Virus record (IMG/VR): IMGVR_UViG_3300033149_006567
Span: 33,843 to 97,842 of that record
Strand: one strand, 5' to 3'
Length of the DNA stretch: 64,000 nt
Origin: a virus
Part shown: piece after piece, positions 131 to 36,599 of the stretch
How positions within the stretch are numbered: position 1 is the first letter of the stretch
How the letters are laid out: every line of letters begins with the position of its first letter
Made by a program: the position numbers and the translations under genes
Notes under the pieces: generated by a model
What the model was told of the DNA's origin: nothing
The model's input: the letters and a program-made list of their open reading frames with translations, nothing else
Database searches by the model: none

Positions 131-2518
131 ATGCCAGACAAAATGAGAAGGACTTTTCCGATAAATATCACGCTAACAGATAGGGAGCAGCCTACTGCCG
201 CTAAATTGACAGCCATAGCGACTCAGTCTAGAGGTGGCCTGGGCATAATTGAAGAGGCAGTTGGAGATATTTGGAATCAATCTGGCGATTCTTATTTGTC
301 TTCGGGGGCTTCTAGGCGCACTCTGCGGATACCTTCTATTGGTCGTTTACTTGGTACTTCTGATGCTTTGAGTCCTTATTTTGAAATGCCGGATGATGAC
401 TTTTTGTTCGAAGAGGATTTAGTCGATTACGCTGATTGCAATAGTGTCCCCCTGACCTTTGAGGCTACAACTTTTTCGGGAGTGCTTTTTTCTGGTCTTC
501 AAAAAGATTATATTACCCAAGTAGACAGTGACGGGGATTGGTTTTATGATGAAACTACAGACAAAGTATTTACTTACGATACGATAGATGGGCACGATGA
601 CTTAGTCTATGAGGTTGTTACCGCAAATTTCCCAACTCATCCCTCTACGTTTGATTTGACCTCCAATACGATTCCTCCGGAAGACCAGGACGGGACATTT
701 ACTGGCTGTAAGGTTGTTCCAAAAACTGGGAGTTCGGGATACTATTATATAATTTTTCCGCCTCGCCTAAGGCTTTCGAATAGAACTGATGTTGACCTGT
801 ATCCCACTGATGCGGGCAATGACGGGACAGATCCGGTTGCAGTTACTCCTATGTATTTTTGGGATGAATCGACAGATGCTCCTGGATTAGGGACGGCCTG
901 GGATGATCATTACCGATACCATTTACCCTCTCTCCTTGATAGTGCGAGTTGGGGGGACAGATTGCCTGACGGATTTTTGAGGCTTGAAATTAACAACGAA
1001 GTGGCTGACGGAGTGGTCTTTTTTAAACCAGCAGCTGTTGCTTATCAATATGGATATATCCTTGAAATTTATGCCCCCTATAGTATTACCGCCCTAGATG
1101 CCGTAGCTTCTGCCGTAGGAACCCATACGACTGCCGCTTATGATACTGGAGTGAAAGTAATTACCACGGGGACTTCAACTGCCGAATTGCTTAATCAGAT
1201 AGTCAGGATGCTTTTAAACCACAAACATAATTCTACTCAAACTGGTTGGAGCAGCAGGGTTGACCATAATGATTTGGTGGGGTTAGATCCAAATTATGAT
1301 GCTGATTTTGATGACGATGGAGGGGGGTATCCCTATTGGCCGTTTGGAACCAACGATGTTAGGTTGACTAAGAGTAATTGGGAGAATGACGGGCATTTGC
1401 AGTATCTTCATCGAGCTGGCTCGTTAGCCTTAGGAGATTCTGATTATTATCGAGACATATATAATAATGCTTTTATTGGTGATTTATTGATAGGGTCGGC
1501 CACCAAGGGTGTTGTGGTCCCGTATTTTAATAATGTAATCAATGATAGCTTTAAGGTCTATTTCGGAAGTGTGGATTACGGACCATGTTTGTATCTGGAG
1601 ACTGCCATTTATGACGCGATTGTTGCTCAAGGGATATCGGGAGAGCCGGGGTTGGTTGGAATTAGTGACACAGATAGTGGACTTTACGGGATAGCGGGGG
1701 CTGCTCCTGGGGTTGTAGGAGAAACTGCCAGCGTTGATGGAGTACAAGGGGGTGGTGGAGATACGGGCATCGGAGTCCATGGATATGGTGGGTCTACTTC
1801 TGGTGTGGGAGTAAAAGGTGAAGCTCAGGGGGGCGATAGTAGTGGCGTTGAGGGGATTGGGCATGGAGATGGTACTGGCGTAAAAGGAGCCGGAGGGACA
1901 ACGGGTGATGGAGTCTATGGGCTAGGGGGAGCGAGTGGGGGGTATGGTGTGGTAGCAGAGCAGCAGGGTAACACAAGAGCTGCTTTAAGAACCGTGCCTC
2001 AGGCATGTCCTCCTGTCGCGGGGTATGAAGGAGACGTACTTTCAAATTCTATGTATAATAACCAGCTCTTTCAGTGTTTGGCTGCGGGAAGTCCTGGTAC
2101 TTGGGATCCTGTTGGACATACGTTGTTGGCTGAGGTTACAGTTTCTCCGGCAGAAGTTAAAACGCTGAGGGCTTCGCCGAAAGAGATCGTAGCGGCACCG
2201 GGAGCTGGGATGGCGATAGTATTCATTATGGCGACCATAGAGTTGGATTATGGCGGGACTCAGTATGTCATTCCAGATGCGGATGACGACTTGAGGATTC
2301 AATATAGTGCGATAGCGGCTGTTACGGAGACCTATAACAGCGCTGGTTTTATAGATGGAGCAAACGACAAGATAAAAGCCCTTTCTTGTGCGAATCCGGC
2401 TTATGAAGTCAAAGAGAATGTTCATTTAGAGTTGGATAATGTAGGATCCTCCGAATACACAACGGGGAATTCTTCATTGTATGTGAAGTGTTGGTATCGA
2501 CTGATACGGACCCATTAA
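131..2518 (+). CDS. Virion structural / tail fibre-like protein with Gly-rich GVxG repeats
   Basis: 795 aa, acidic; repeats such as GVHGYGGSTSGVGVKGEAQGGDSSGVEGIG typical of phage fibre shafts; lies in a block of large structural-type genes. Confidence 0.55.
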   Translation: MPDKMRRTFPINITLTDREQPTAAKLTAIATQSRGGLGIIEEAVGDIWNQSGDSYLSSGASRRTLRIPSIGRLLGTSDALSPYFEMPDDDFLFEEDLVDYADCNSVPLTFEATTFSGVLFSGLQKDYITQVDSDGDWFYDETTDKVFTYDTIDGHDDLVYEVVTANFPTHPSTFDLTSNTIPPEDQDGTFTGCKVVPKTGSSGYYYIIFPPRLRLSNRTDVDLYPTDAGNDGTDPVAVTPMYFWDESTDAPGLGTAWDDHYRYHLPSLLDSASWGDRLPDGFLRLEINNEVADGVVFFKPAAVAYQYGYILEIYAPYSITALDAVASAVGTHTTAAYDTGVKVITTGTSTAELLNQIVRMLLNHKHNSTQTGWSSRVDHNDLVGLDPNYDADFDDDGGGYPYWPFGTNDVRLTKSNWENDGHLQYLHRAGSLALGDSDYYRDIYNNAFIGDLLIGSATKGVVVPYFNNVINDSFKVYFGSVDYGPCLYLETAIYDAIVAQGISGEPGLVGISDTDSGLYGIAGAAPGVVGETASVDGVQGGGGDTGIGVHGYGGSTSGVGVKGEAQGGDSSGVEGIGHGDGTGVKGAGGTTGDGVYGLGGASGGYGVVAEQQGNTRAALRTVPQACPPVAGYEGDVLSNSMYNNQLFQCLAAGSPGTWDPVGHTLLAEVTVSPAEVKTLRASPKEIVAAPGAGMAIVFIMATIELDYGGTQYVIPDADDDLRIQYSAIAAVTETYNSAGFIDGANDKIKALSCANPAYEVKENVHLELDNVGSSEYTTGNSSLYVKCWYRLIRTH

Positions 2519-2534
2519 TAACAGGAGTAAAAAA

Positions 2535-2843
2535 ATGAATCAGCAACAACAAACGCAGTATCTTAATCAAATTCTCGGTGACCCGGATTTTCGATTTGAA
2601 GATCCAGTGGAACAAGAGATACTGGAGGCTCTCCGAAATGTCTCGACTCAAAGTGAAAGGTTGGTTGAAACCGTTCGGCAAGCCCAGGAGGAACAAAAGT
2701 TGCTTCGAGGGGAAACTCGAGGGTACGCTAAGCTTCTTTTGGCCAAAGAGGTCGCTCGTAGAGAAGAGTTGGCCAAGGAGGAGGTTGCCGAGGATTTACC
2801 TGTCGGCGAAAAAGAAGATTTACTGGAGGAAAGTGAGGGCTAG
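2535..2843 (+). CDS. Small coiled-coil protein, possible fibre chaperone
   Basis: AGGAG RBS; helical Q/E-rich 102 aa directly after a fibre-like gene. Confidence 0.4.
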   Translation: MNQQQQTQYLNQILGDPDFRFEDPVEQEILEALRNVSTQSERLVETVRQAQEEQKLLRGETRGYAKLLLAKEVARREELAKEEVAEDLPVGEKEDLLEESEG

Positions 2844-2848
2844 TCTGG

Positions 2849-5101
2849 ATGCCTTCTCGTCAGACTCAAAAATTTAAGGTTAGCTCGGTAAATTACTTGG
2901 CCGTCTCTGATGTATTTTTAAACATACAGAAACGGCACGAGGATATCGTCTATAAGACTTTTACTGGAGATGAGGACGCCCTGATATCTTACCTTAACGC
3001 AGTCCGAATATCCGCAGATGACAATCTGTCTATTGTAGATAGGTCTGCAGAAAAGTTGGTGGAAAATCGCATAGAAAGTGCCTCCGAGTATTCAGTTGAA
3101 GAAAGTGCCCTGACGATAACAACTGAGACTGACGAGGTTTTGATTACTGACGAGTTTTTGACAGGGAATTCTCTTGAGGAGCCCGTACCCCTCTTCTATA
3201 AACACCAGATCCCTGAATCTCATTTCGACCCAGACAGCGGACATAAGATCGTATCCATGAGACTCCTAGATGACTCTTTGGAAGAGGTTTCTGTAGCCGA
3301 TTATTCTTTAGATTCTTCCACGGGAACTCTTTTTAATAATTTTGAGCACGAGTTCGACGCAGGAGACAATTCCTACAGTCTCTATTATCTTCAATATACG
3401 GTTAAGGAATCGTCGGCAGTCGTCAAAAACTATACGGTGCTTTTAGATAATGAGCCAGTTTACGCTTTGGCCGAAGCCTCTGATTTGAATGAGTGGGGAG
3501 CTCTCATCAACGATGGCCGGAAGGTTTTTCTAAGAGAAGAGCTATTCGATGGGACCTATCAATTTACATTTCCTTCGATTGCAGACTATGCTTTTCGAGA
3601 AGTTTTAACTAATCGCATAAAGGTTTTGCCTCCTGTCTTGGGGTCGAGAAGTGATCCTTGGTATATACGAGTCTCTAATGGCCTGTTTTATTCGACGGTA
3701 GACGGAATAACCTACAAGTATTATGTTCCTGAGATTACTGGCCAAACCTTTAATCCCTATTATCCCTACAGGAAGGCCACTAAAGAGCCAGCCGCTATAG
3801 TTAATAAGAACTTGATCAAGCTCGGCTATGACAAGATATATGAAGACGGGTCTACTCTGCATTTAGATGTCTTTATATACGATGCAGATGATTATCTAAA
3901 GTATGCCTTTACTACTGACAGTTCCCTTCATGGGACTGCGGCGGGGAATGGGCGAACCGAGGTGGTTTTGTATTCCAACTTGGAAGCTGGGGGTGACTAT
4001 GGTATCCGGAGCGTAGATCATTTGTATGGATTTGTTGATATACGAGGGATGGACTTGTCTTCTTCTTGTACGGCGAAGGCTACCTATTATTATGAATATT
4101 CGGATCTTCCCATTAATTCCGTGAATTTCAATTTCACTCAGAATCAAGACATCATTCATTATGATATAGTTCTATTCCTCATCCCCGACACTTTAGTCTC
4201 GTCTTCAACTCAGACGGTATACCTGCTAAAGGTGGACGAGAATGGGCAGGTAGTCTATTCTGATTGGACTTCTTTTGACAATACGGAGCGGTCCCTAGAT
4301 GGCAAGCCCCTCTTTTATCGAGAGCCCCCAAGTTGGTGGACAGTTTTGCATGGAAGTGACTATTCGAATTTCGAAGAAACATATACGGTAAATGGGAACG
4401 GATATTACTTGACTTTAGCTGAGATTCATCCTGTTCTGGCCTACAAGCTTGACGGGATAGAAGATTCGGATATACGTCAGCAGGGCGGAGGGCTTCGGGG
4501 GGACTCTTCTTTGGTGAATACAGAGGAGGCTCAGAGCTGTTGGGATGTAATGAAGTGGGATGGCAGGCATTATCCGGGAGCAGGTTCTTTTCTCGTTGAA
4601 GTTCCTTCGAGTGTTTTGTCTGGGGCAGGTGGGAGTTTTTATTCAGATGAAGTTCGAGAAGTCATAAATAAGCATATAGGATACGGGCTTTATCCGGTTA
4701 TTAGAGGCTATGGAGTTGACCCTCGGATCACTAGCGTAGAACCTGGTGATGGGTCGATAACGGTGGTTTGGTCTCATGGAAATTCAGATGCCTATTATAA
4801 AATATATATAGCGAAAACTCTTCAGGGACCTTTTACGGCGGTCAATGATTCCAGTCCAGTTCAAGAGAACAGTACAGAAAATTCGTACACCATTACGGGA
4901 CTGGAAAATGATATGATTTATTATATATTTGTAGTTGGAGGATTTATCTCGGGTAGTACGTGGACCGAGAGTTCTGAGCAAATTATCGGGCCGGGGAATT
5001 TGACGGCCAAGACCGGAAGCACCTTAGAGTATGTTAAATGTAAGCCTGGGATCCCACGCGGCTCAAACTTTTTGAGTCAAAGATTTACGGTAATTTCCTG
5101 A
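2849..5101 (+). CDS. Virion structural protein with C-terminal fibronectin type III-like domain
   Basis: 750 aa; C-terminal PGDGSITVVW...YKIY...YTITGLENDMIYYIFV matches the FN3 pattern. Confidence 0.55.
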   Translation: MPSRQTQKFKVSSVNYLAVSDVFLNIQKRHEDIVYKTFTGDEDALISYLNAVRISADDNLSIVDRSAEKLVENRIESASEYSVEESALTITTETDEVLITDEFLTGNSLEEPVPLFYKHQIPESHFDPDSGHKIVSMRLLDDSLEEVSVADYSLDSSTGTLFNNFEHEFDAGDNSYSLYYLQYTVKESSAVVKNYTVLLDNEPVYALAEASDLNEWGALINDGRKVFLREELFDGTYQFTFPSIADYAFREVLTNRIKVLPPVLGSRSDPWYIRVSNGLFYSTVDGITYKYYVPEITGQTFNPYYPYRKATKEPAAIVNKNLIKLGYDKIYEDGSTLHLDVFIYDADDYLKYAFTTDSSLHGTAAGNGRTEVVLYSNLEAGGDYGIRSVDHLYGFVDIRGMDLSSSCTAKATYYYEYSDLPINSVNFNFTQNQDIIHYDIVLFLIPDTLVSSSTQTVYLLKVDENGQVVYSDWTSFDNTERSLDGKPLFYREPPSWWTVLHGSDYSNFEETYTVNGNGYYLTLAEIHPVLAYKLDGIEDSDIRQQGGGLRGDSSLVNTEEAQSCWDVMKWDGRHYPGAGSFLVEVPSSVLSGAGGSFYSDEVREVINKHIGYGLYPVIRGYGVDPRITSVEPGDGSITVVWSHGNSDAYYKIYIAKTLQGPFTAVNDSSPVQENSTENSYTITGLENDMIYYIFVVGGFISGSTWTESSEQIIGPGNLTAKTGSTLEYVKCKPGIPRGSNFLSQRFTVIS

Positions 5102-5113
5102 TCGGAGTCGAGG

Positions 5114-5668
5114 ATGGCAGTAACAGTTTATTGGGCTAGTGATAATTCGGGCACTTTGTTAAATCAGGTCGTAGATCATGGATCTGTAGCAAAAGGGAAT
5201 AATAGCGGGGCAACCGCTTTTTATCTATATCATAATGGCCAGAATGACATAACTAATTGCGGCTTTTACATACAGCCTCGGTCTGGGTTGTACGAGGGAG
5301 ACTTTTCTGCTCTCACAGATTACCAAGAGCTTATCGATTGGGGGGACTCTACGAACGCTAATGGGTTTGGCGGCTATATGATAAATATGAATGCGACGGG
5401 AGCTTGGGCTAATGGTTGGGCGGCAGTCGGAGATAAATTTCCTGCGTACGGCTTTGTTTGTCGAAGTGGAGTGGCAGATTCTTTTGGTAATGCTCAGACT
5501 TTGATGTCAGAGATGGGGTGTTCGTCTTCTGGCGTGGTACAGAATAATTATCCGAATGGATATGGAATTAATGTCCGGTTTCAATGTAGAATAGCGGTTC
5601 CCTCCAATGAGACTTCGTTGGGTCAAAGGGAAATCGATCTTTGTCTTCGATATTCTTATACGAGTTAA
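5114..5668 (+). CDS. Hypothetical beta-rich structural protein
   Basis: 184 aa N/G/S-rich ORF in the structural operon. Confidence 0.45.
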   Translation: MAVTVYWASDNSGTLLNQVVDHGSVAKGNNSGATAFYLYHNGQNDITNCGFYIQPRSGLYEGDFSALTDYQELIDWGDSTNANGFGGYMINMNATGAWANGWAAVGDKFPAYGFVCRSGVADSFGNAQTLMSEMGCSSSGVVQNNYPNGYGINVRFQCRIAVPSNETSLGQREIDLCLRYSYTS

Positions 5669-6117
5669 TGATGCGCGTGAATGGTTGGATTAAAAGATTC
5701 GTGGATGGTTCCTGGGAAGAGGGGAAAGACAAGGAAGTATTAGCCGGAAGAGCTAGCTGGTCTAGGGGTCGCCTAGAGGGCATGCTGAGGGCAGAGGTTC
5801 ATCACGGAAGATATTTTCTGGGAATTTGTGGTCCTGGAGAATATTGGCAGTCAGATGATTTTTCTGTAAATCTTTCTTCAGGAGAGACGCAGTTAGAGAC
5901 GAGGAGGCTGCAGAGGAAGATAGTGCTTCCCGACACTAACATGGTAGTGCAGAGAAAAGAAAGCGAGTTGCTTGTGTTTGTGTATACGGGTTCTCCTCCG
6001 TACATGCCAGGAGAGTTTCTTTGTGTGAGCCCAGAGATGTTGGGAAAATGGCTGACGCTTGAATTAAACTTGAAGGACGACTCTCTCCAGATGAACATTT
6101 TGCCGGAGCGGATATAG
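5668..6117 (+). CDS. Hypothetical protein
   Basis: ATG overlaps the upstream TAA (TAATG); fills the gap to the next gene. Confidence 0.5.
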   Translation: MMRVNGWIKRFVDGSWEEGKDKEVLAGRASWSRGRLEGMLRAEVHHGRYFLGICGPGEYWQSDDFSVNLSSGETQLETRRLQRKIVLPDTNMVVQRKESELLVFVYTGSPPYMPGEFLCVSPEMLGKWLTLELNLKDDSLQMNILPERI

Positions 6118-16251: not shown

Positions 16252-16283
16252 GTATGTCCTGTATTTCCATTCTTTTTTTTCTC

Positions 16284-16312
16284 TTGCCTTGCCTTATTTT
16301 ATCTGTTATAAT
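16284..16312 (+). promoter_or_regulatory. Sigma70-like promoter for the actin/glycan operon
   Basis: TTGCCT-N17-TATAAT with extended -10 TG, just after the fibre gene stop. Confidence 0.6.
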
Positions 16313-16346
16313 CATTTTGGTTCTCAAATTTCGAGGGAAATTTTCT

Positions 16347-16778
16347 GTGGCCGATCGACTAAGGTTAAATAAAGACGGTAAAGTAGTCAAAGATCATAAT
16401 CTTCCTGGCTTTAAAAAGGGAGGGGCGTTTTCAGTTCCCTCTCTTTCTATTGACGAAAAGCAGTTGAAAAGGTTGGCCATTATTGTTGGGAAAACCATCG
16501 CCAGGGAACTACTTAAGCATCCGGAATTATTTAAGACTGAAGTGACTCTTAAACCAGCTTTATTGCCCGAAAGCGTTCAATATCCCCAGGTAACTTACGA
16601 TGACATACGGACACCCGATGATTGGAGTAAGCTAGAGGACATAGTTGACGTGGGGGTGTCTACGGAGGGAATGGAAGGTTCTTTTGATGAAGCTTTTAAA
16701 GAGGAGCTGGTTAAGGATGAAGGCGTCGAGGGGGCCCGAGAAAAATTATCTAAGTTGAAAAGTAAGCAGGGAGTTTAG
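16347..16778 (+). CDS. Hypothetical protein upstream of the actin gene (probable GTG start at 16347)
   Basis: GAGGG RBS before GTG; the longer ORF-track N-terminus reads through the T-rich promoter. Confidence 0.55.
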   Translation: MADRLRLNKDGKVVKDHNLPGFKKGGAFSVPSLSIDEKQLKRLAIIVGKTIARELLKHPELFKTEVTLKPALLPESVQYPQVTYDDIRTPDDWSKLEDIVDVGVSTEGMEGSFDEAFKEELVKDEGVEGAREKLSKLKSKQGV

Positions 16779-16779
16779 A

Positions 16780-17775
16780 ATGTTAGGTTTAGATGTAGGG
16801 ACGTCTTATGTTATTGGGGCCAGGGAAACTGACAAGGGGATAACTTATCGAGAGTTTCGGGACGCCTTTTTCAGGATTAAGCCCGCTACGCCCATAGCGG
16901 CCAAGATGATAGAGAAGGGTTTGAAAGGCACCAAATATTTTAAAGATTCGGATGGAAGTTTCGTTGTTATTGACAAGGAGGCTATTGTCAAGGCAGTTGA
17001 GAGGAACTCGTCGGCTCTAAGGCCTCTTGCTCGAGGGATTTTATCTCCCAAAGAGAGGGATGCTCGCAGGGTATTCAAGTTCCTTTTGGGCAAATTACTA
17101 GGCAAGCCGAAAGAAAAGAAGGAAAAGCTTGTTTATTCGATTCCTGCGGCTCCGGCAGACGTATCCTCAGACGATTTCGATGTTGGATATCACTGCGATG
17201 CCATTGGGAACGATCTTAAGGAACTCGGTTTTGATCCCAGCCCCTTAAATGAGGCAGAGGCAATTTGTTATGCAGAATTAGAAGAGGATGATTATACGGG
17301 CGTTTCTATTTCGGCAGGCGCGGGAATGCAAAATGTTTGTGTCATGTCTTCTGGTGAGCCAGTATTAATATTTAGTCTAGCCAGGTCTGGAGATTATGTT
17401 GATCGTATGGCTGCGGCTTCTACAGCGGAACCGGATTCTGTTGTTCAAATGGAGAAGGAGGCTGGAGATTGGGAAGTGGGGAAGGAAAATGAGAATCGTA
17501 TTTTGAGCGCTGTTTCCATATATTACGTCAGACTTATTAAATACGTAGTAGAAATGCTTTCGAAAAAGCTTAATTCAGCAGATGAACTTCCCAGGTTTCC
17601 TTCAGCGATACCAGTTGTTTTGTCTGGGGGAACTTCGCTAGCGAAGGGGTACGTAGAGGAGTTTAAAAAGCAGTTGGCCCCGGTTGATTTGCCGTTCGAA
17701 GTCAAGGAAGTTCGTCACGCTAAGGAGCCCCTTAGGGCTGTCGCAAAAGGCTGCTTAATCGCCGCGTCTTTATAG
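16780..17775 (+). CDS. Actin-family ATPase, volactin-like
   Basis: Phosphate-1 GLDVGT, connect-1 NEAEA, phosphate-2 ISAGAGMQN, adenosine LSGGTS, connect-2 EPLRAVAKG. Confidence 0.85.
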   Translation: MLGLDVGTSYVIGARETDKGITYREFRDAFFRIKPATPIAAKMIEKGLKGTKYFKDSDGSFVVIDKEAIVKAVERNSSALRPLARGILSPKERDARRVFKFLLGKLLGKPKEKKEKLVYSIPAAPADVSSDDFDVGYHCDAIGNDLKELGFDPSPLNEAEAICYAELEEDDYTGVSISAGAGMQNVCVMSSGEPVLIFSLARSGDYVDRMAAASTAEPDSVVQMEKEAGDWEVGKENENRILSAVSIYYVRLIKYVVEMLSKKLNSADELPRFPSAIPVVLSGGTSLAKGYVEEFKKQLAPVDLPFEVKEVRHAKEPLRAVAKGCLIAASL

Positions 17776-17783
17776 GACCCCAG

Positions 17784-18890
17784 ATGGCTAAAAAACTTGC
17801 TTTAAATAAGAACGGGGTTGTTACTAAAAGAATTAATATGCCAGACCTTAAGGTTGTTCCAACGACTAAAGCTGGGCGCAGATTGGTTCGGTTGCATAAG
17901 TTGATAGTCGGAGAGTCTCCTAAGATATGTATTGTTCGAGGTGGAGGAATAGGCGACCTTTTGATGACTACTCCTGCTGCTAAATTTATCAAGAAGCAGT
18001 ATCCTCATGTCCATCTGACTTATGCCGTTGACTTTCATTATTTAGACGGGGCTCTTCCTTCAGTTTTAGAGGGTAATCCTTATGTTGACAAGGTAGTCCA
18101 CTGGAAGTCATATGACGAAGATGATTTTGATGCTGTTTTAAATCTTCAGTGTCCTTGTGTTGCTCACGAAAGACCAGGCGCGAAACCGATTAGCAGAATA
18201 GACCTTTTTGCTCGTCACCTGGGTATTTATGAGATGGAAGATAAGCGGCCCGTTTACGTCGGATCAGCGGAAGAGGACGCAGAAGTTGACGCTTGGTTAA
18301 ATAGTCGGCTTCATTATGATAGTTCTCGTCATAAATTACTTGTTGTGAGTCCTTTTTCTTCTGCTGGTGGACGTAGTTTTCCGATTGAGAGGATGAAAGA
18401 GACTCTTAGGTATGTTAAACAGGTTCTTCCTGAGGTAAAGGTGGTTGTTTGCACTCATGACTCAGATTTTCTCAAGGACACGTACTGGGATTCTGTTGCA
18501 GATGCTGTAGCTCATGAATTTAAAGTTCGAAAATTTGCTTCTCTTTTGAGTTTTTCTCGATTAGTTCTTTGTCAGGATTCAGCTGCTCTTCATCTTTGCG
18601 GGGCACTTGACATTTCTGTTTTGGCCCTTTTTGGTTCCACCGATCCTCGCGCCAGAGTAAATCATTACCCTAAGGCGGTCGGGTACTGTCCAGGTCTTAA
18701 GCTGCAGTGTTTTCCATGTTGGTATAATTACGGAAATTGTTCTCACAGTACTTGTTGGCGTTTGATAGAGCCGAAAGACGTGGCCGGTATTATGGTAAAT
18801 ATGTTGACTCAAAAACCAGTTGTGTCCGAGTTTCTATCCCTCGGAGAGAAAAAACCTCCGAGAAATCGCATTCGAACTGAAACCCTTTAG
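17784..18890 (+). CDS. Glycosyltransferase family 9 (heptosyltransferase-like)
   Basis: RGGGIGDLLMTTP, DSAALHL, LFGSTDP, and a C-terminal CFPCW...C...C cluster. Confidence 0.85.
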   Translation: MAKKLALNKNGVVTKRINMPDLKVVPTTKAGRRLVRLHKLIVGESPKICIVRGGGIGDLLMTTPAAKFIKKQYPHVHLTYAVDFHYLDGALPSVLEGNPYVDKVVHWKSYDEDDFDAVLNLQCPCVAHERPGAKPISRIDLFARHLGIYEMEDKRPVYVGSAEEDAEVDAWLNSRLHYDSSRHKLLVVSPFSSAGGRSFPIERMKETLRYVKQVLPEVKVVVCTHDSDFLKDTYWDSVADAVAHEFKVRKFASLLSFSRLVLCQDSAALHLCGALDISVLALFGSTDPRARVNHYPKAVGYCPGLKLQCFPCWYNYGNCSHSTCWRLIEPKDVAGIMVNMLTQKPVVSEFLSLGEKKPPRNRIRTETL

Positions 18891-18903
18891 CCCGAGTCCC
18901 CAG

Positions 18904-20178
18904 ATGTCTAAAAAAATTAAGCTACTTGCTTGGTGCGATTTGGTTGCGCATACAGGTTTTTCAAATGTAGCAGAGCATGTCTTGAAGGCACTTTATTCTA
19001 CCGGGTTATATGATATAGATGTTTTAGCCATCAATTATCACGGAGACTTTCTCGATAAAGAAAGATATCCTTATCAAATAGTTCCGGCTAAACTGAAGGA
19101 CCCCAAGGATCCCTATGGAAAGGGCATGTTCGTTAGGTCTCTAGAGAATAAGGCCTATGATGCTGTTTGGATAATAAATGACGTGTATGTGGTTGAACCT
19201 GTTTCTAGGGCCGTGACGCAGATGAAAGAGGCTTTTCAGAATAGAGGGAAGACGCCTCCCTGTATTTTCTATTACTTTCCAATAGATAGCAAGCTTTTGC
19301 CTGGATATTCGGGGATGATCAAGGTAGCTGATGTTCCTGTTGCTTATACTCAGTTTGCTTTGGATGAAACTCTGAAGACAGTCCCCTCTCTAAAGTCCAA
19401 GAATATCCCGATTATTTATCATGGAGTCGACACTTCTGTTTTCCGCCCCCTTTCGCTCGAGGAGCGCTCTAGATGGCGAAGAGATTATTTGAAAGTCGAA
19501 GATGACACTTTTGTTATTATTAACGTCAATAGAAACAGTGAGAGAAAACAGTTAACTAGAACTCTATTGGCTTTTGAGGAGTTTAGAAAACATGTTCCGA
19601 AGTCTAAGCTTTATGTGCATGCAGCCCCCAGAGATTCTGGCATTGATCTTTTTTCTGCTTGCAATGATCTAGGATTTGACATAAGGAGGGATGTCATATT
19701 TCCTGACCCAAGAAATTTTTCGCCATCTAAGGGGTATCCGGCTGAGGTGTTAAATCGGTTTTATAATGCAGCTGATTGCTTTCTGACGACTACCCTAGGC
19801 GAGGGATACGGGTTGTGCGCCCAAGAATCTCTCGCTGCTGAGATTCCCGTAGTTGTTCCCGATAATACCGTTCATCCTGAAATTTTTGGAGAAGATGGAG
19901 AACGAGCTCTAATATATGATTGCAAAGAACTTATTTGGGTAGACAACACTGCCTATCGCCCCCTGGGTCGAGTGGAAGACATAGTCGAGAAATTGCTCCA
20001 GGTTTATAACGAGCCCCTAGATGCCAAGCGATCTCGAGCTAAAAGAGGACGTGAATGGTGTGTTAAAAATGACTGGAAAGAGATAGGGGAGCAATGGATA
20101 AGTCTCTTTAATAGAGAGCTTTCTTCTAGAAAAGTTAAGGGGGAAGATACTTCTCGCATTAAGGCTAGTTTGGTATGA
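18904..20178 (+). CDS. Glycosyltransferase family 4
   Basis: TGFSNVA, IYHGVD, NRNSERK, EGYGLCAQE (Ex7E); probable ATG at 18904. Confidence 0.85.
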   Translation: MSKKIKLLAWCDLVAHTGFSNVAEHVLKALYSTGLYDIDVLAINYHGDFLDKERYPYQIVPAKLKDPKDPYGKGMFVRSLENKAYDAVWIINDVYVVEPVSRAVTQMKEAFQNRGKTPPCIFYYFPIDSKLLPGYSGMIKVADVPVAYTQFALDETLKTVPSLKSKNIPIIYHGVDTSVFRPLSLEERSRWRRDYLKVEDDTFVIINVNRNSERKQLTRTLLAFEEFRKHVPKSKLYVHAAPRDSGIDLFSACNDLGFDIRRDVIFPDPRNFSPSKGYPAEVLNRFYNAADCFLTTTLGEGYGLCAQESLAAEIPVVVPDNTVHPEIFGEDGERALIYDCKELIWVDNTAYRPLGRVEDIVEKLLQVYNEPLDAKRSRAKRGREWCVKNDWKEIGEQWISLFNRELSSRKVKGEDTSRIKASLV

Positions 20179-20185
20179 GGAAAAA

Positions 20186-22450
20186 ATGTCTCTAAAGATT
20201 AGATGGGTAGGTCCTTACTCGGATCCTTGTTATGATGATCAGACTGAGGTGTTAACTTCTAGCGGTTGGAAATTTTTCAAAGATATTTCTTTCGAAGATG
20301 GTCTTGCCACTCTGAATGAATGGCATATCATAGAATACCAAAAGCCTTCTCATATAATAAACAGAGAGTATGAGGGCGAAATGTATTACCTGGACGCTCC
20401 AAGGGCTAAAATAAATATTTGTGTGACTCCTAATCATTCTATGTACGTGACTACGGAAAGCGGTAGGCGTTCAGGGCGAGCGAATGCGTGGCGTCTCGAA
20501 GAGGCGAGGGATATATATGGGAAAACGCGAGCTTTTAAAAGAGATGGTCGGTGGCGAAAAAAGGGGAAGGAGCATTTTCGGATATGTGGAAGAAAGATAA
20601 AGGCGGAGCATTGGCTGGAGTTTTTGGGATATTATCTTAGCGAAGGATCTGCAACTATTTACAAAAGGCCTGCTGGTGTTACAAAAGGGGGCAGGCATCC
20701 GGTATATAGGGATCGTTACGTGAATAGGACTTACGAGCGTTCTGAGTCAACAGAGTACATATTGCAAATCAGGCAGGTTAAAGGCGAGGAGAATCGGGTT
20801 CGAATGGCAGAGGCGGTTCGGCGAGTGACGAATAATTCGGTAAATACTCGAAACAAAGACGGGCGAATACTGGTGCACGACAAAGATCTGGTGCTTTATT
20901 TGAAGCGATTTGGAAATTGCTGTACCAAGTATATACCGAGAGACGTGTTAAACAAATGCTCTAAGGAACAGCTGGAGGTACTTTTCGAAGCTCTTGTTTT
21001 GGGAGGCGGAACAGACAACAGAAAGAAAGGTGGCGGGGTTATTTACAAGACCTTTTCCAAACGCCTTCGGGACGATTTTCTGGAGCTATTGCTTAAAGTC
21101 GGATTTTCTGGGCACTATAAGCGTGAGATCGTGAAGGGCGAAGAGATAAGAATAAACGGCAGAGTTTGCCATGCGAAAGAGGATGGCTGGAAAATAGGGG
21201 TACGATTTAAAAACCGCGGTTTTTTGAAAAAATCATCTCAATGTTCGGTCCCGAGTAAACATGAAGAAAAGATAGTCCCCTATAAGGGGCGAATTTATTG
21301 CGCTACGGTCCCTAACCATGTGCTTTTTGTAAGGCGAAATGGCTGCGTTTTATGGTGTGGGAACTCGGGCTACGGTAGTAACTCGAGAAAGTTCGTGCAT
21401 GCCCTATATAAGTTGCAAAAAAAATACGACTTTCGTCTTGGAACTATGCCGGTTTCTTTCGAAAAACAAAGGGCGGATTATGGAGAGGCCGGAAGAATTT
21501 GTAAACGCCTGGAGGAGCATGCACTTCAAGAGGACATCCGGATAATTAACACTACTCCAGAGTTTTATGATCGTTTGAAAAGGCCCGGAGTGTTAAATGC
21601 TGCTTATGTTACATTCGAACTAGATGGTATTCCCGATTTATGGGTCAGAGAGCTTAACAAGATGGACGCGGTATTTACTACGGCGGAGTTTTGTGCGGAA
21701 GTGTTTAGGAAGAGTGGGGTAAAAACGCCAGTATTTTCTGTCCCCCCGGGCTTGTTTCCCGAAGATTATCGGAGAGTGGAACCGTTGTCCTCCCTAGATG
21801 TCCCCGAAGATGTCTTTTCTTTTTATTCTATCTTTCAGTGGACTCCTCGCAAAAATCCCCAGGCTTTACTTCATGCGTATTGGTCGGAATTCACTGGACA
21901 AGATGATGTTTGTCTGGTTCTGAAGACTTACAAGAATGATACGTCTCCTCAGCAAGTTGATATGCTCAGGAGAATTATTGCTCAGGAAAAACGGGGTTTT
22001 CGGCTTGATCATCACCCCAAGATATTCTTTATCTCTCAATTGTTGAGTGCTAGTCAATTAGAAGATTTACATTTGTCTTGTGACGCCTTTGTCTCGACTA
22101 CGGCAGGGGAAGGAAATTTTATCCCCGCTTTTAACGCCATGGCATATGCTAAGCCAGTAATAGTTACGGGGTGGTCTGGGCATACAGAATATTGTCGACC
22201 CGAATATAATTATTTGTCTAAATACCAATTGAGGCCAGCTCACTCGATGAGTTGGTGTGCCTGGAATGAGGCTCGATTTAATTGGGCCGATGTTAATATA
22301 CTTCATTTTCGAAAATTGATGCGAGAGGTTTATGAAAATCGAGCCCAGGCGAAGAAGAAAGCTGAGAAAGGACAGCGATTTTTATTTAAGGAGTTTTCTT
22401 GGGAAAAAATGATTAAAAGACTCGTAGATGGTATTGAGGAGGTTTTGTGA
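20186..22450 (+). CDS. GT4-type glycosyltransferase interrupted by an intein
   Basis: Exteins join as WVGPYSDP/SGYGSNSR; QWTPRKN, GEGNFIP, VIVTGWSGH. Confidence 0.85.
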   Translation: MSLKIRWVGPYSDPCYDDQTEVLTSSGWKFFKDISFEDGLATLNEWHIIEYQKPSHIINREYEGEMYYLDAPRAKINICVTPNHSMYVTTESGRRSGRANAWRLEEARDIYGKTRAFKRDGRWRKKGKEHFRICGRKIKAEHWLEFLGYYLSEGSATIYKRPAGVTKGGRHPVYRDRYVNRTYERSESTEYILQIRQVKGEENRVRMAEAVRRVTNNSVNTRNKDGRILVHDKDLVLYLKRFGNCCTKYIPRDVLNKCSKEQLEVLFEALVLGGGTDNRKKGGGVIYKTFSKRLRDDFLELLLKVGFSGHYKREIVKGEEIRINGRVCHAKEDGWKIGVRFKNRGFLKKSSQCSVPSKHEEKIVPYKGRIYCATVPNHVLFVRRNGCVLWCGNSGYGSNSRKFVHALYKLQKKYDFRLGTMPVSFEKQRADYGEAGRICKRLEEHALQEDIRIINTTPEFYDRLKRPGVLNAAYVTFELDGIPDLWVRELNKMDAVFTTAEFCAEVFRKSGVKTPVFSVPPGLFPEDYRRVEPLSSLDVPEDVFSFYSIFQWTPRKNPQALLHAYWSEFTGQDDVCLVLKTYKNDTSPQQVDMLRRIIAQEKRGFRLDHHPKIFFISQLLSASQLEDLHLSCDAFVSTTAGEGNFIPAFNAMAYAKPVIVTGWSGHTEYCRPEYNYLSKYQLRPAHSMSWCAWNEARFNWADVNILHFRKLMREVYENRAQAKKKAEKGQRFLFKEFSWEKMIKRLVDGIEEVL
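20228..21364 (+). mobile_element. Intein (379 aa) with LAGLIDADG homing endonuclease domain
   Basis: Starts CYDDQTEVLT; block B VTPNH; FLGYYLSEG and LFEALVLGGG; ends YCATVPNH...VLWCGN followed by Ser. Confidence 0.9.
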
Positions 22451-32691: not shown

Positions 32692-33633
32692 ATGTCTCAA
32701 GACTACCTTAACTCTGGTGGCTATGACAGCTATAGCTTTTGGGGTGACATTGACGAACATGTCACCAGAATCAAGCCAGTTTCAAAACACAGCAAGAACT
32801 TTTATCCTTCAGAAGCTTCGGTTGTTTTAACCGATGAGTACGGAGATCGCAAAGTAGAGGGAGCTTGTTTAAGGAAGGCCTTCTATCGTATCAAGGCTTT
32901 TCAGCCTGCCCCCCCGAGAGTATATTCAGAATACATATTCCAGCAGGGACGTGATTGTGAGAAGGCTATCATCAATTGGGCCAAAGAGCGGGGTCGCTGG
33001 GTAGACAATAGCCATAAATTTTCCACTAGTGAGCTGGGGTTCCCCATTAAGGGAGAGCTTGACGGGATATTCATAGAGCCACATACGGGGAACCTGTACA
33101 TAATGGAAGCAAAAACTTTTTATGGATATTACGCGACTAAAGAGATAATGGGCAACTATAAGCAAAAGGGATTCCCTAAGATGTCTCATTTGCTTCAATT
33201 GCTTCTCTATGTCTACCTATTCAGGCCCAACAGTGGGTTTAATTTCACTGACTATGAGATTCCTTATGGACGTCTTGTTTATTGGGCTCGAGATAACGCT
33301 GCCAATCGAAAAACTTTCAAAGTTGAATTAAAGCAAGAGGGCGAGATATTTTTTCCTGTGGTCGAAGGCGAAGTTGTTCGTACTTTTACCGTGAATGACA
33401 TGATTGCTCGATATCGAAAGCTTAAGGAACATTTGGATAACGATGAGGTTCCACCTCGCGATTTTGAACATCAGTATTCTCCCGAAAAGATAAGGGATTT
33501 TTTTGAAAAAGGAAAAGTTTCCAAGAAAGCCTTTGGTGATTGGCAGAAGAGGAAGAAAGTGCCGGGAGACCCCCTTTGTTCCCCGACTTATTGTCCCTAT
33601 TTCCACCATTGTTACGAACGAGCCAACCTCTAA
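32692..33633 (+). CDS. Cas4-like PD-(D/E)XK exonuclease
   Basis: N-terminal CLRKAFY, GELDG...MEAKT, QLLLY, C-terminal C...CPY...C. Confidence 0.7.
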   Translation: MSQDYLNSGGYDSYSFWGDIDEHVTRIKPVSKHSKNFYPSEASVVLTDEYGDRKVEGACLRKAFYRIKAFQPAPPRVYSEYIFQQGRDCEKAIINWAKERGRWVDNSHKFSTSELGFPIKGELDGIFIEPHTGNLYIMEAKTFYGYYATKEIMGNYKQKGFPKMSHLLQLLLYVYLFRPNSGFNFTDYEIPYGRLVYWARDNAANRKTFKVELKQEGEIFFPVVEGEVVRTFTVNDMIARYRKLKEHLDNDEVPPRDFEHQYSPEKIRDFFEKGKVSKKAFGDWQKRKKVPGDPLCSPTYCPYFHHCYERANL

Positions 33634-33650
33634 AACTAGCAGGTATCCAG

Positions 33651-36599
33651 ATGCCTAAGATCAAGAATCTTGAAGAACTGATGGACAAGTTGACCCCTAA
33701 GCTTGAACATTATCTTCGTTCTTTCGGGATAGAAACTGAAAGAAACTTTAGCTGCATTAGCCCCGACCATGAAGACAGAAACCCATCTTGCAGTATTCAA
33801 GGAAATGACAAGAGGACCTTTTTTTGTCATGGCTGTGGGATCGAAGGCGGGATATTCGCTGCTTGCCACTATCTAGAAGGCAAGCCTTTGCATGGGCAGC
33901 ATTTTGTCCAGGAAAATGTTCGTTATTTAGCGGATAAGTTTGGCATAGAATACGAGATGGAAGAGGCCTCTGAGGCGGAGTTGTATCGGTTTGACACTCT
34001 GCGGGCTTACCAAGCGGCCGCCGAATACATCCGAAGAGTTCCCAAAAGCAAGAAGGCTCTAAAAGAGATTAAGAGGCGGGGATGGACTGAAGAATTGTGT
34101 TTTCGCGAGGGAGTAGGCGCTGTTGAAGATTTTAAAAGCTTTAGGGAGTATCTAAAGGACAAGGGGTTTGCCGCAGGGTTTCTAGATGACATAGACCTTG
34201 GTCGCAAGGACATGTTTAACGAAGAAAACCTCATTTTTACTATTCGAGATGAAACGGGTCACCCCGTAGGCTTTGCCTGTAAAATTTTATCTGACTACAA
34301 CAAGGGCGCCAAGTACGTAAATCAAAAAACCACTGGCCAGAAGTGCAATATCTACAAAAAGGGAGAGCGTCTTTACGGGTTTGATTATGTCATGCAGGTT
34401 TTTCGGGATGACCCCCCATTTATCTATGTGTTTGAAGGTTACAGTGACGTTCTGACAGCTCGTCAGAATGGTATCGAAAATTGTTGTGCCGTTGGGGGTG
34501 TAAATTTTACCTATGAGCATCTTAGGCTCTTAAAGACCAATAACTTTTACAAGATATGCCTGTGTTTGGACGGAGATGCGAGAGGACAGGGAGCCACATC
34601 TCGTTTATTAGATAATATATTCTCTGATCATAAAGATGTAGACTTATATGTCATAGATATTCCCGAAGAAGAGGATCCTGACGGTTACATCAGGAAACAT
34701 GGAATAGAAAAATTTAAAAGGCTCCAGCAAAAAACGGCCTTTGAGTGGCGGCTCAACCAGTTCGAAGACTTAGGAGATGATGAGGCTATTTGCGCGGCCA
34801 TGATACCTCTTGTGGTAAATGAGCCCAGCTATATTAAGCAAGAAAAGATGGTCAGTCTTCTTTCTAATCACACAGGAATTTCCCTTCAAGCTATCCAAAG
34901 CGAAGTCCAACGTCAGCAGAGTGACTTTGAGAACAAAAAATCCCTGGAGAGGCGAGATATCATTAAGAGAATGATAAAGCGCCTAGAATTTGATCCCGGA
35001 CAAGCCGAAGGGGTAATAGCAGAGACCGAGTCAGAGTTGCATAATTTGATGCGTAAGTATAACGAGGACTCACTCTCTCCCGATTCTTTTCTCAGCCTCC
35101 TAGAAGCCCAGAAACGAGAGCAAGAAGAGAAGGGAGACGAGTTTAGTGGATTCATACTTGGAGAAGATCTAGAGGAGTTTCAGAACGTTTTAAATGGAGA
35201 GTGGAAGGAAGATGTTTTTTGTGTGCTTGGGGGCAGAAGTAACGCCGGGAAGTGCCTTCCGGAAAGTGCAATGGTACTAACTGGTTCAGGAGAATACAAA
35301 AGCATCAAGGATATGGTTGAAGGAAAAGACGATAGCGTGATAGCGATGGATAAGTTTCATAAAATGGTCCCAGCTAAGGTCATCGGTTGGCAAAATGTTG
35401 GAGAGAAACAATGCGCTAATATCAAAACGATTGACGGGATAAGTATCGAGGCCGCTTATACTCATCCGTTTTATACGCTGAACGGGTGGAAAAAAGTGTC
35501 GGAATTGCAAAAAGGAGATAGGGTCGCCATTGCTTCAGATTTGACCTGTTTGAACAAGGGGTATGAACGAGGCATTTCTGGAGATGACACTGAACTTCTG
35601 GGGCACCATATAGGAGACGGAGCTATTACTGAAGGAGATATATGCTTTGCGGAAATCACAGAAATAGAAAACGTTGGGAGAAAGGAGTGCTATGACCTGG
35701 AAGTCGAAAAGCATCATACTTTCTTGGCTAATGATTTTGTAGTGCACAATAGCAGCTTGTGCGTAAAACTCGGAGTGGCTATTGCGTCTCATTTGGAGAA
35801 TGATGCTTGTGTTATTTACCATTCGATAGATGATTCGGCCAGGCAAATACTTCCCAAGTTTGTTTGTGTTTCCGAAGGCAGTCGTTTATTAGAGATTAAC
35901 CAGGTGGTGAATCCTGGATACCATATGGCCCAAGGACGAAAAGATATTGTGCAGCGAAGGAATGCTGGGTATGAGACTCTTCGCCAATTAGGGGCTGAGG
36001 GACGATTGATTCTTAAGGATTCGGGGAATGGAAATTCTCTGGCTTTTTCGGAGTCTCTTGTTAAGTACTATAGAAGCAAATACCCCTCTAGGCGCCTTGT
36101 TTATATATTAGATAACTTTCACAAACTCAGCGACCTTGCCAGTTCTGATGTAGATCAAGGGACCTATAAGGCTATGTCTCAGCGGATAAAAGAGATGGCA
36201 TGTAAGTATAGGGCTGCTGTGATTGCTACTGTTGAATACACTAAGCTTGTGCCGGGAACTCGTCCAACCAACTATAATATATCCAATAGCGTACAAATAG
36301 ACTATGACGCCAATTTAGCCCTACACCTTTATAATGAGCTTCACGAGATTAGAGGCCGGGCTGAAAATTATCATGTTGTCACTGTTAATTCTGAAGTAAT
36401 GAAGCTCCCCCGTATTGAAATGGATTTTGGAAAGAACAAGATCACAGATTTTAAGGGAAGTCTTTGCTTTAATTTCTATCCATATTGCTCAGATATAGAG
36501 GGGGTTCGGTGGGACGAAGTAGAGAGGGAGAAAGAAGAGAGAAAGCCGGAGCCTTCGAGTAGCTCGAGTTCTGGGAGGTATGAGAATATTTTTAAATAG
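33651..36599 (+). CDS. Fused DnaG-type primase / DnaB-like helicase with a mini-intein
   Basis: CHC2 finger (C..PDH...CHGC); TOPRIM (FEGYSD, LDGD, DPD); Walker A GRSNAGK/S split by the intein; Walker B ILDN. Confidence 0.85.
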   Translation: MPKIKNLEELMDKLTPKLEHYLRSFGIETERNFSCISPDHEDRNPSCSIQGNDKRTFFCHGCGIEGGIFAACHYLEGKPLHGQHFVQENVRYLADKFGIEYEMEEASEAELYRFDTLRAYQAAAEYIRRVPKSKKALKEIKRRGWTEELCFREGVGAVEDFKSFREYLKDKGFAAGFLDDIDLGRKDMFNEENLIFTIRDETGHPVGFACKILSDYNKGAKYVNQKTTGQKCNIYKKGERLYGFDYVMQVFRDDPPFIYVFEGYSDVLTARQNGIENCCAVGGVNFTYEHLRLLKTNNFYKICLCLDGDARGQGATSRLLDNIFSDHKDVDLYVIDIPEEEDPDGYIRKHGIEKFKRLQQKTAFEWRLNQFEDLGDDEAICAAMIPLVVNEPSYIKQEKMVSLLSNHTGISLQAIQSEVQRQQSDFENKKSLERRDIIKRMIKRLEFDPGQAEGVIAETESELHNLMRKYNEDSLSPDSFLSLLEAQKREQEEKGDEFSGFILGEDLEEFQNVLNGEWKEDVFCVLGGRSNAGKCLPESAMVLTGSGEYKSIKDMVEGKDDSVIAMDKFHKMVPAKVIGWQNVGEKQCANIKTIDGISIEAAYTHPFYTLNGWKKVSELQKGDRVAIASDLTCLNKGYERGISGDDTELLGHHIGDGAITEGDICFAEITEIENVGRKECYDLEVEKHHTFLANDFVVHNSSLCVKLGVAIASHLENDACVIYHSIDDSARQILPKFVCVSEGSRLLEINQVVNPGYHMAQGRKDIVQRRNAGYETLRQLGAEGRLILKDSGNGNSLAFSESLVKYYRSKYPSRRLVYILDNFHKLSDLASSDVDQGTYKAMSQRIKEMACKYRAAVIATVEYTKLVPGTRPTNYNISNSVQIDYDANLALHLYNELHEIRGRAENYHVVTVNSEVMKLPRIEMDFGKNKITDFKGSLCFNFYPYCSDIEGVRWDEVEREKEERKPEPSSSSSSGRYENIFK
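35253..35750 (+). mobile_element. Mini-intein (166 aa) in the helicase P-loop
   Basis: GK/CLPESAMV...THPFY...YDLEV...FVVHN/S; no complete endonuclease. Confidence 0.9.

Follow-up and report, generated by a model that had tools for sequence, protein, structure and literature searches.

Within the 64,000-nt stretch analysed here (the window; bases 33843-97842 of the 97.8-kb linear IMG/VR record IMGVR_UViG_3300033149_006567), an open reading frame (ORF) of 331 aa is a genuine full-length actin of the volactin family with a confidently predicted actin fold. Comparison of viral loci at the sequence level indicates that this actin belongs to a conserved phage module of two genes, the other of which lies directly upstream and encodes a small protein that ends in a conserved basic tail. 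We lean towards the interpretation that the two proteins form a membrane-linked filament module of the phage. To our knowledge, two kinds of phage cytoskeleton have been described, one made of tubulins (PhuZ/TubZ) and the other of the ParM-like AlpC. With representatives on hundreds of contigs from environmental phages, a volactin-type actin that apparently has a membrane anchor would be a third kind and, if true, would widen the current view of cell organisation by large phages. No paper on a phage-borne volactin module was found in the literature searched; among papers on volactin the word phage occurred only in an unrelated reference, and searches on phage actins turned up AlpC/AlpA and the viractins of giant viruses.

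The actin gene consists of a single ORF with exactly the ends listed in Table 1, starting with ATG 1 nt past the stop codon of the preceding ORF and served by its own Shine-Dalgarno (SD) sequence, GGAG, 6 nt upstream. The product scored 198.2 bits with Pfam Volactin (PF25216), for which the cut-off is 35 (E 3.2e-58), residues 2-329 aligning with positions 3-321 of the 321 in the profile, and the match was also obtained when the whole genome was searched. Given this E value and near-complete coverage of the profile, the ORF is real, far beyond chance. No other Pfam family rose above threshold. Salactin (19.8 bits), MreB (PF06723; 19.1 bits, cut-off 27) and EutJ all remained below their cut-offs, and the models for ParM/StbA, FtsA, Actin, Hsp70 and kinases yielded no match at E <= 0.1. 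NCBIfam provided no family for the ORF (salactin 26 bits and MamK 23 bits, where the cut-offs are 400), PHROGs provided none for either the actin or its upstream partner, and a sequence search of the PDB returned nothing significant, the best match being EutJ (E 0.25).

An earlier sequence-only reading of this DNA had described the product as a volactin-like actin, distinct from MreB, FtsA and ParM, with all actin-fold motifs present, and had quoted RPLARGILS, YSIPAAP, NEAEAICYAELEEDDYTGVSISAGAGMQNVC, FSLARSGDYVD, VVLSGGTS and PFEVKEVRHAKEPL as its signature. Every one of these strings was found in the translation, and the Pfam result agrees with the family named. Eight residues (D5, G7, E158, G180, G182, G283, G284 and G324) were invariant in 46 family members and sit on the nucleotide-binding motifs of the actin fold. 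The phosphate-2 loop reads S-x-S-A-G-A-G, carrying serine at the position occupied by aspartate in MreB and ParM, where the loop has the form D-x-G-x-G. Structure prediction, which had been suggested as a check, gave an actin fold of high confidence (AlphaFold2 with an alignment of 46 sequences; pLDDT 96.1, pTM 0.92). The nearest solved folds identified by Foldseek were those of MreB, MamK and BeeR, at TM scores of 0.65-0.72 and approximately 17% identity, with E values between 1e-11 and 1e-14 for matches to MreB, MamK, BeeR and actin. Superposition on FtsA was poorer (TM 0.51-0.53, rmsd about 12-19 Å), and an identity as FtsA, for which there was also no Pfam match, was rejected. The same applied to MreB, on the basis of the low Pfam score, approximately 20% identity to the Escherichia coli protein and a neighbourhood of phage fibre-like and glycosyltransferase genes. 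Likeness to MreB and its associates RodZ and MreCD extends to the fold, to a shared R-P-[LM]-x-x-G-[VI]-I motif and to the general idea of envelope enzymes being organised by an actin linked to the membrane, but there is no mreCD or rodZ context at the window actin. Neither a ParM/StbA nor an Hsp70-like identity, named beforehand as outcomes that would count against the volactin assignment, appeared among the Pfam matches.

Clustering of all ORFs in the viral loci revealed an ORF of approximately 100 aa immediately 5' of the actin gene in 71 loci, separated from it by gaps of 1-8 nt. The same tail closes a longer ORF in five further loci, and the position was masked by the ORF filter in three more. 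At least 76 of the 80 viral loci have a tail-bearing ORF before the actin gene, and the pairing is kept even where every other gene changes. In viral partners a hydrophobic helix at the N-terminus is followed by a variable linker, and the proteins close with a conserved stretch of the form I-x-I-D-E-x-K-x-V-T ... T-D-x-L-E-K-K ... D-x-I-S ... N-K-L-K-x-L-K. The partner in the window begins with a hydrophobic segment, followed by a peptide that recurs in the adjoining glycosyltransferase (the twin peptide, considered below), an S-I-D-E-K element, an insertion of approximately 60 aa and the basic C-terminal tail. In a profile comparison its tail aligned end to end with those of the viral partner family (family A3; E 1.5e-4). 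When a hidden Markov model (HMM) of the tail was run against six frames of the 97.8-kb genome, the partner ORF was the sole significant match (E 1.4e-3), and MAFFT placed both the S-I-D-E-K element and the tail on family columns, with the insertion between them. A pattern scan of IMG/VR revealed no relative of the window partner, and Pfam no recognisable DNA-binding domain.

Variants of this arrangement were observed in more distant loci. In a 485-kb phage assembly (L082), the ORF upstream of the actin gene ends in D-V-G-V-S-D-A-M-G-A-L-K-A-V-R-K-K, similar to the tail of the window partner. Locus L186 encodes an ORF with a transmembrane (TM) segment, a coiled coil and a basic tail, which is parted from the actin gene by an inserted gene of 463 aa (1617-3008). 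The product of the inserted gene contains five zinc-ribbon-like repeats and an endonuclease-like C-terminus, and resembles a mobile element of the homing type. In five loci (L002 1285-2433, L003 4841-5989 and L018/L019/L031 4842-5990) an ORF of 382 aa lies directly upstream of the actin gene, with a Pfam Trypsin match at residues 52-245 followed by the partner tail at its end. The tail may be a portable module, or these ORFs may represent read-through of two genes during ORF calling.

Two start codons were considered for the partner in the window. Translation from ATG 16254, which lies 3 nt past the preceding stop codon, yields the hydrophobic helix, while GTG 16347 is preceded at a distance of 9 nt by GAGGG (16333-16337). 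Comparison was made with locus L106, the actin of which is 65% identical to that of the window. The only frame open in both stretches is that of the hydrophobic segment, which is kept in frame in L106 with 29 codons against 31 in the window, a difference of 6 nt. Within this segment, identity by codon position decreased from second to first to third (21, 15 and 14 of 28), and the remainder of the gene follows this order too. The internal CGAGGGAA and its start codon are likewise conserved in L106. The sigma-70-like promoter match in this region (TTGCCT, a 17-nt spacer and TATAAT with TG) is regarded only as a lead, since the total of promoter-like sites in the region equalled the expectation from shuffled sequence. 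From these comparisons the long, membrane-anchored form of the partner is favoured and probably the one produced; a short soluble isoform is possible.

Co-folding of the actin (alignment A1) with the 143-aa form of the partner (A4) returned a score of 0.60 (0.60, 0.56 and 0.62 in separate runs), classed as weak support. The best of three controls scored 0.00, contact agreement between runs was at least 77% and the pLDDT of the partner was at least 50. When the method was calibrated, 58 of 80 solved complexes passed the mark, as did two of 110 mismatched pairs; scores of 0.60 or below accounted for seven of the 80 solved complexes and for both of the mismatches that passed. Because the adjacency of the two genes is conserved, the result is read as mild support for binding between the predicted structures of actin and partner.

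Building on the family membership, fold, conserved pairing and operon layout described above, a mechanism may be proposed for the membrane-linked module. Partner and actin would be translated from one operon, and the ATPase would polymerise into nucleotide-dependent filaments in the infected cell, as its cellular relatives do. The tail of the partner would dock onto the actin, and the probable single helix at its other end would anchor the filaments at the cytoplasmic membrane, tethering or nucleating them in a manner resembling ParR with ParM, RodZ with MreB, or HVO_2016, the gene beside that for volactin (HVO_2015) in Haloferax. A membrane-linked cytoskeleton built by the phage could serve to organise the space of the host cell, whether by determining cell shape, envelope sites or assembly sites. 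The module would also offer a compact two-gene system for studying how filaments of the volactin family are tethered, both in Haloferax (HVO_2015/HVO_2016) and in planctomycetes.

Several observations weigh against this mechanism. The start of the partner is ambiguous, and the promoter-like site, SD sequence and GTG 16347 together would give a 143-aa protein lacking the membrane helix. The statistical support for homology between the window partner and the family tail is modest and comes from approximately 40 residues. The co-fold passed in the weak band and returned no interface. The replacement of the phosphate-2 aspartate by serine is found across the volactin family, and the kinetics of ATP hydrolysis may differ from those of MreB and ParM. 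Finally, the HMM built from phage tails had no significant match to cellular tails, the best (E 0.016) being to the ORF that immediately precedes a planctomycete actin gene.

Table 1. Features of the actin locus, with positions numbered from the first base of the window.
Feature	Position	Strand	Basis
Partner/adaptor, 174 aa from ATG 16254 or 143 aa from GTG 16347	16254..16778	+	Tail profile/HMM, MAFFT, position
Hydrophobic N-terminal segment of partner, probable single TM helix if coding	16254..16346	+	Only frame open in window and L106
Sigma-70-like promoter match	16284..16312	+	10/12 matches, extended -10
Twin peptide copy A in partner, A-D-R-L-R-L-N-K-D-G-K-V-V-K-D-H-N-L-P	16350..16406	+
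Conserved C-terminal tail of partner (D-V-G-V-S-T-E-G ... E-K-L-S-K-L-K-S-K-Q-G-V), presumed actin-binding	16647..16775	+	Profile comparison, tail HMM, MAFFT
Actin-like ATPase, volactin family, 331 aa	16780..17775	+	PF25216, AlphaFold2, Foldseek, trees
GT9 (heptosyltransferase-like) glycosyltransferase with 46-aa N-terminal extension (17784-17921)	17784..18890	+	Pfam GT9; TIGR02193 match from residue 47
Twin peptide copy B in GT9 extension, A-K-K-L-A-L-N-K-N-G-V-V-T-K-R-I-N-M-P	17787-17843	+
Two GT4-type glycosyltransferases, second with Hint/LAGLIDADG insert; context only	18820..22450	+	Pfam/PHROGs

The IMG/VR record (CheckV completeness 51%) encodes virion structural and tail-like proteins, a DNA polymerase of the bacterial DnaE type, a bacterial RecA, a DnaG-DnaB fusion and sugar-modifying enzymes. 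The virion genes, together with the bacterial-type DnaE, RecA and DnaG-DnaB, identify the replicon as a large bacteriophage, as had been supposed from the sequence alone. None of the cultured phages is close, the identity of its DnaE to theirs being 37% at most.

A word-indexed search returned 1,253 relatives of the window actin, the best 120 of which are approximately 332 aa in length, 56-70% identical to it and all possess PF25216; several are encoded on contigs of 168-207 kb. The database protein P0002, at 70% identity, is among the closest. When 1.84 billion representatives were searched exhaustively, 904 clusters matched at E <= 1e-3, of which 262 reached E <= 1e-30; longer fused forms were among the matches. 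Relatives are encoded on 171 IMG/VR and 182 metagenome stretches, TARA Oceans scaffolds among them. As judged from sequence comparison, the phage-borne volactin module is widespread among contigs of aquatic phages. Of the GenBank phage collection, only two uncultured 'huge phage' assemblies, of 485 kb (35% identity) and 595 kb (29%), contained relatives. The representative P0129 had no relative in IMG/VR; P0127, a further sister representative, has the viral relative L186. In the main viral clade (loci L003-L081) the module usually lies among genes for rIIA-like, rIIB-like, RuvB-like AAA+, trypsin-like and subtilase proteins, and not among virion or glycan genes. Some representatives depart from the standard length. 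In P0121, P0130, P0143, P0175, P0196 and P0224, of approximately 700 aa, the query matched in two stretches approximately 350-370 residues apart, suggesting an intein or other large insertion within the actin domain; P0121 (695 aa) is 58% identical to the query. Other members of the family have N-terminal extensions of up to approximately 580 aa.

The volactin family is not specific to haloarchaea, as far as homology searches reveal. In a sample of 151 genomes from the phylum of a metagenome-assembled genome (MAG) titled 'uncultured Planctomycetia bacterium', 65 contained the family above its cut-off, with scores of up to 312 bits and sometimes with two to four copies. In several genomes of the sample some of these copies lie inside open frames of 700-1150 aa, and the MAG itself carries two family genes in tandem, at 258.7 and 258.5 bits (L085/L086; G001:C38:8116-10693). 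A genome scan with the acidic representative P0197 produced a single MAG locus and no haloarchaeal one. Among 72,556 plasmids, tblastn produced five matches, all to haloarchaeal megaplasmids, at 34-35% identity and 99% query coverage (E 1e-41 to 1e-46); no volactin was found at the pHV4 plasmid locus. These megaplasmid homologues represent the haloarchaea in all comparisons, HVO_2015 itself not being among the sequences compared. One of them, from Halogeometricum pHBOR01 (L101 3992-5179), is named 'cell division protein FtsA' in RefSeq and appears to be mis-annotated.

Trees were constructed with FastTree (147 rows) and with IQ-TREE under the site-heterogeneous PMSF model (72 rows), using E. 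coli MreB and FtsA as the only outgroups, with ParM, AlpC and MamK left out; all branch values given here are starred ones. The volactin family separated from these two references at 97 (FastTree) and 96 (IQ-TREE). The window actin and that of L106 form a pair (96), sister to a tight viral clade (99), and all lie within a larger starred clade (97-98). The haloarchaeal group (100) and the planctomycete groups are found elsewhere in the trees, as are the two huge-phage copies, which occupy other parts again. The phage clade is nested in neither cellular group, and no conclusion is drawn as to the donor of the phage actin because the backbone of the tree is weak. Identity of the window actin is 53-56% to IMG/VR copies, 32-38% to planctomycete and 34-36% to haloarchaeal members, and approximately 20% to E. 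coli MreB and FtsA. The phylogeny proposed in the sequence-only reading thus sets the family apart from MreB and FtsA, the two references included. The further claim, that the protein follows haloarchaeal volactin in particular, stands as regards membership of PF25216 but not as regards kinship, the phage actin being about equally distant from haloarchaeal and planctomycete members.

Volactin of Haloferax forms dynamic filaments whose tips contact the membrane and which affect cell shape; viruses are unmentioned in that study (PMC10869688). The CdpA-like HVO_2016 adjoins volactin, and a pull-down of CdpA recovered volactin with a log2 fold change (log2FC) of 2.5 (p = 0.06) (PMC12126565). The phage actin shares with volactin of Haloferax volcanii (VolA, HVO_2015) the PF25216 family, the actin fold and an S-x-G-A-G phosphate-2 loop, and the two-gene arrangement may resemble HVO_2016/HVO_2015, the upstream gene on the same strand encoding a probable membrane protein in which a long linker leads to a basic C-terminus. 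The phage actin nevertheless has only 34-36% identity to the megaplasmid copies and belongs to a phage with a replisome of bacterial type. The gene that precedes volactin at three haloarchaeal loci encodes a DUF7139 protein of approximately 300 aa with four TM segments, the tail of which is more loosely like that of the phage. The phage partner, by comparison, is approximately 100-175 aa in length with one hydrophobic helix, and that of the window had no Pfam DUF7139 match.

Planctomycete systems are similar in possessing PF25216 and an upstream gene with a tail of the form '...NL.KLK.LKG', some occurring in tandem or fused forms. The upstream products end, for example, in E-S-N-L-D-K-V ... 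S-L-N-K-L-K-S-L-K-G, and the similarity of tails across domains was recognised largely by eye. They differ from the phage partner in being coiled-coil proteins of 245-450 aa with no strong hydrophobic helix in a crude scan, and their actins have 32-38% identity to that of the phage. No characterisation of the planctomycete actins or their partners was found in the literature searched.

In the window, the partner and actin genes are followed on the same strand by genes for a GT9 and two GT4 glycosyltransferases, with spacers of 1-8 nt. The sequence-only reading had drawn attention to this glycan-gene neighbourhood, which is indeed present; it is not, however, conserved in other viral loci, and the neighbour that is conserved, the tail-bearing partner, had gone unmentioned. 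When ten neighbours from the window, including the three glycosyltransferases, were compared by tblastn with 82 other viral loci, they were almost never found beside the actin gene, and glycosyltransferases were missing from that position in approximately 78 of the 82. Glycan genes were therefore rejected as a conserved context of the actin.

The GT9 enzyme and the partner share the twin peptide, of which copies A and B agree at 11 of 25 residues; the pattern has no further occurrence in the genome. Across the window and approximately 180 loci, which together gave 3.29 million six-frame residues, the motif L[NS].[DN]G.[VI][VTS][KRS] occurred exactly four times, at the partner and GT9 positions of the window and of L106. 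The copies co-vary, being LNKDG and LNKNG in the window and LNSDG and LNSDG in L106, where the arrangement of the GT9 is the same. Since the catalytic domain of GT9 begins only at residue 47, the peptide lies on an added extension. Recent duplication of DNA is an unlikely source, the nucleotide identity being approximately 55% as read by eye from the alignment, and the tail HMM did not support the N-terminal peptide of GT9 as a plain copy of the family tail element. The twin peptide represents a concrete candidate for a docking motif, and a link between actin and GT9 in the sub-lineage of the window, though not a general one, is plausible from these sequence patterns.

The best placed of the alternatives to the membrane-linked module takes this link as its centre. 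The filament, with or without the partner, would recruit GT9 through the shared peptide and so concentrate phage-directed modification of lipopolysaccharide (LPS) or surface glycan, as MreB does in wall synthesis. Gene order, close spacing, the extension on GT9 and the confinement of the co-varying motif to two positions are all consistent with such a scaffold, as is a second, distant association of GT9 and actin in the 595-kb uncultured phage LR756511 (L083), in which a GT9-like gene (4748-5752) lies two genes upstream of the volactin-family actin. The twin peptide could also be the remnant of a partial duplication, and in the many loci without adjoining glycosyltransferases the neighbours are rIIA/rIIB, RuvB-like and protease genes. 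As an account of the module the glycan scaffold is improbable. A composite, in which a self-contained membrane-tethered actin is common to a large clade of phages that are uncultured, aquatic and approximately 160-300 kb in size, and a docking peptide recruits the envelope glycosyltransferase in the window sub-lineage, is somewhat less so, yet still unlikely; if true, it would be the viral counterpart of envelope synthesis guided by MreB.

A little less probable again than the glycan scaffold is a takeover of the host cytoskeleton, whereby the phage actin would co-polymerise with, cap or replace a volactin-type actin of the host, for example of a planctomycete, blocking division or reshaping the cell. 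The frequency of the family in the planctomycete sample, the influence of volactin on the shape of Haloferax cells (PMC10869688) and the retention of the full set of invariant residues in phage copies would suit such a role. Against it, the phage clade lies outside the planctomycete and haloarchaeal clades, at 32-38% identity, and the presence of a partner encoded by the phage itself points to a self-contained system.

Positioning of phage DNA, replication factories or capsids after the fashion of ParM or AlpC appears quite improbable. The pairing with a small adaptor is formally similar to known phage and plasmid actins: both AlpC/AlpA (Corynebacterium prophage CGP3) and ParM/ParR combine an actin-like ATPase of a mobile element with a small adaptor that modulates its filaments, and AlpC with AlpA is reportedly a phage actin that positions its cargo via the adaptor. 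These systems belong to another actin family, however, and their adaptors bind DNA (alpS/parC), whereas the phage adaptor looks membrane-anchored and is encoded upstream, not downstream. As the actin had no ParM/StbA match, and the adaptor has a hydrophobic helix but nothing recognisable as a DNA-binding domain, a segregation actin of the ParM/AlpC type was rejected; nor was a centromere-like array of repeats apparent, although no dedicated search was made for one. Least likely is a non-polymerising ATPase of actin fold, such as an EutJ/Hsp70-like chaperone or a sugar-kinase-like enzyme. In its favour are EutJ as the best, though not significant, match in the PDB and the serine at phosphate-2; against it are the full-length match to the volactin family, the founding member of which forms polymers in vivo, nearest folds (MreB, MamK and BeeR) that form filaments and the lack of any Hsp70 or kinase match in Pfam.

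The tubulins PhuZ and TubZ of jumbo phages are also cytoskeletal proteins of large phages but have a different fold, and are linked to the phage nucleus, no marker of which was seen here, albeit without a systematic search. Two further genes of the window appear to contain inteins. The third glycosyltransferase (20186-22450, plus strand; 754 aa) has its GT4 domain confined to the C-terminal half, while residues ~10-400 gave weak matches of the Hint/LAGLIDADG type and PHROG matches to intein-bearing proteins, probably reflecting an intein inside the glycosyltransferase. The DnaG-primase/DnaB-helicase fusion (33540-36599, plus strand; 1019 aa) has an intein splicing domain inserted at residues ~568-738.

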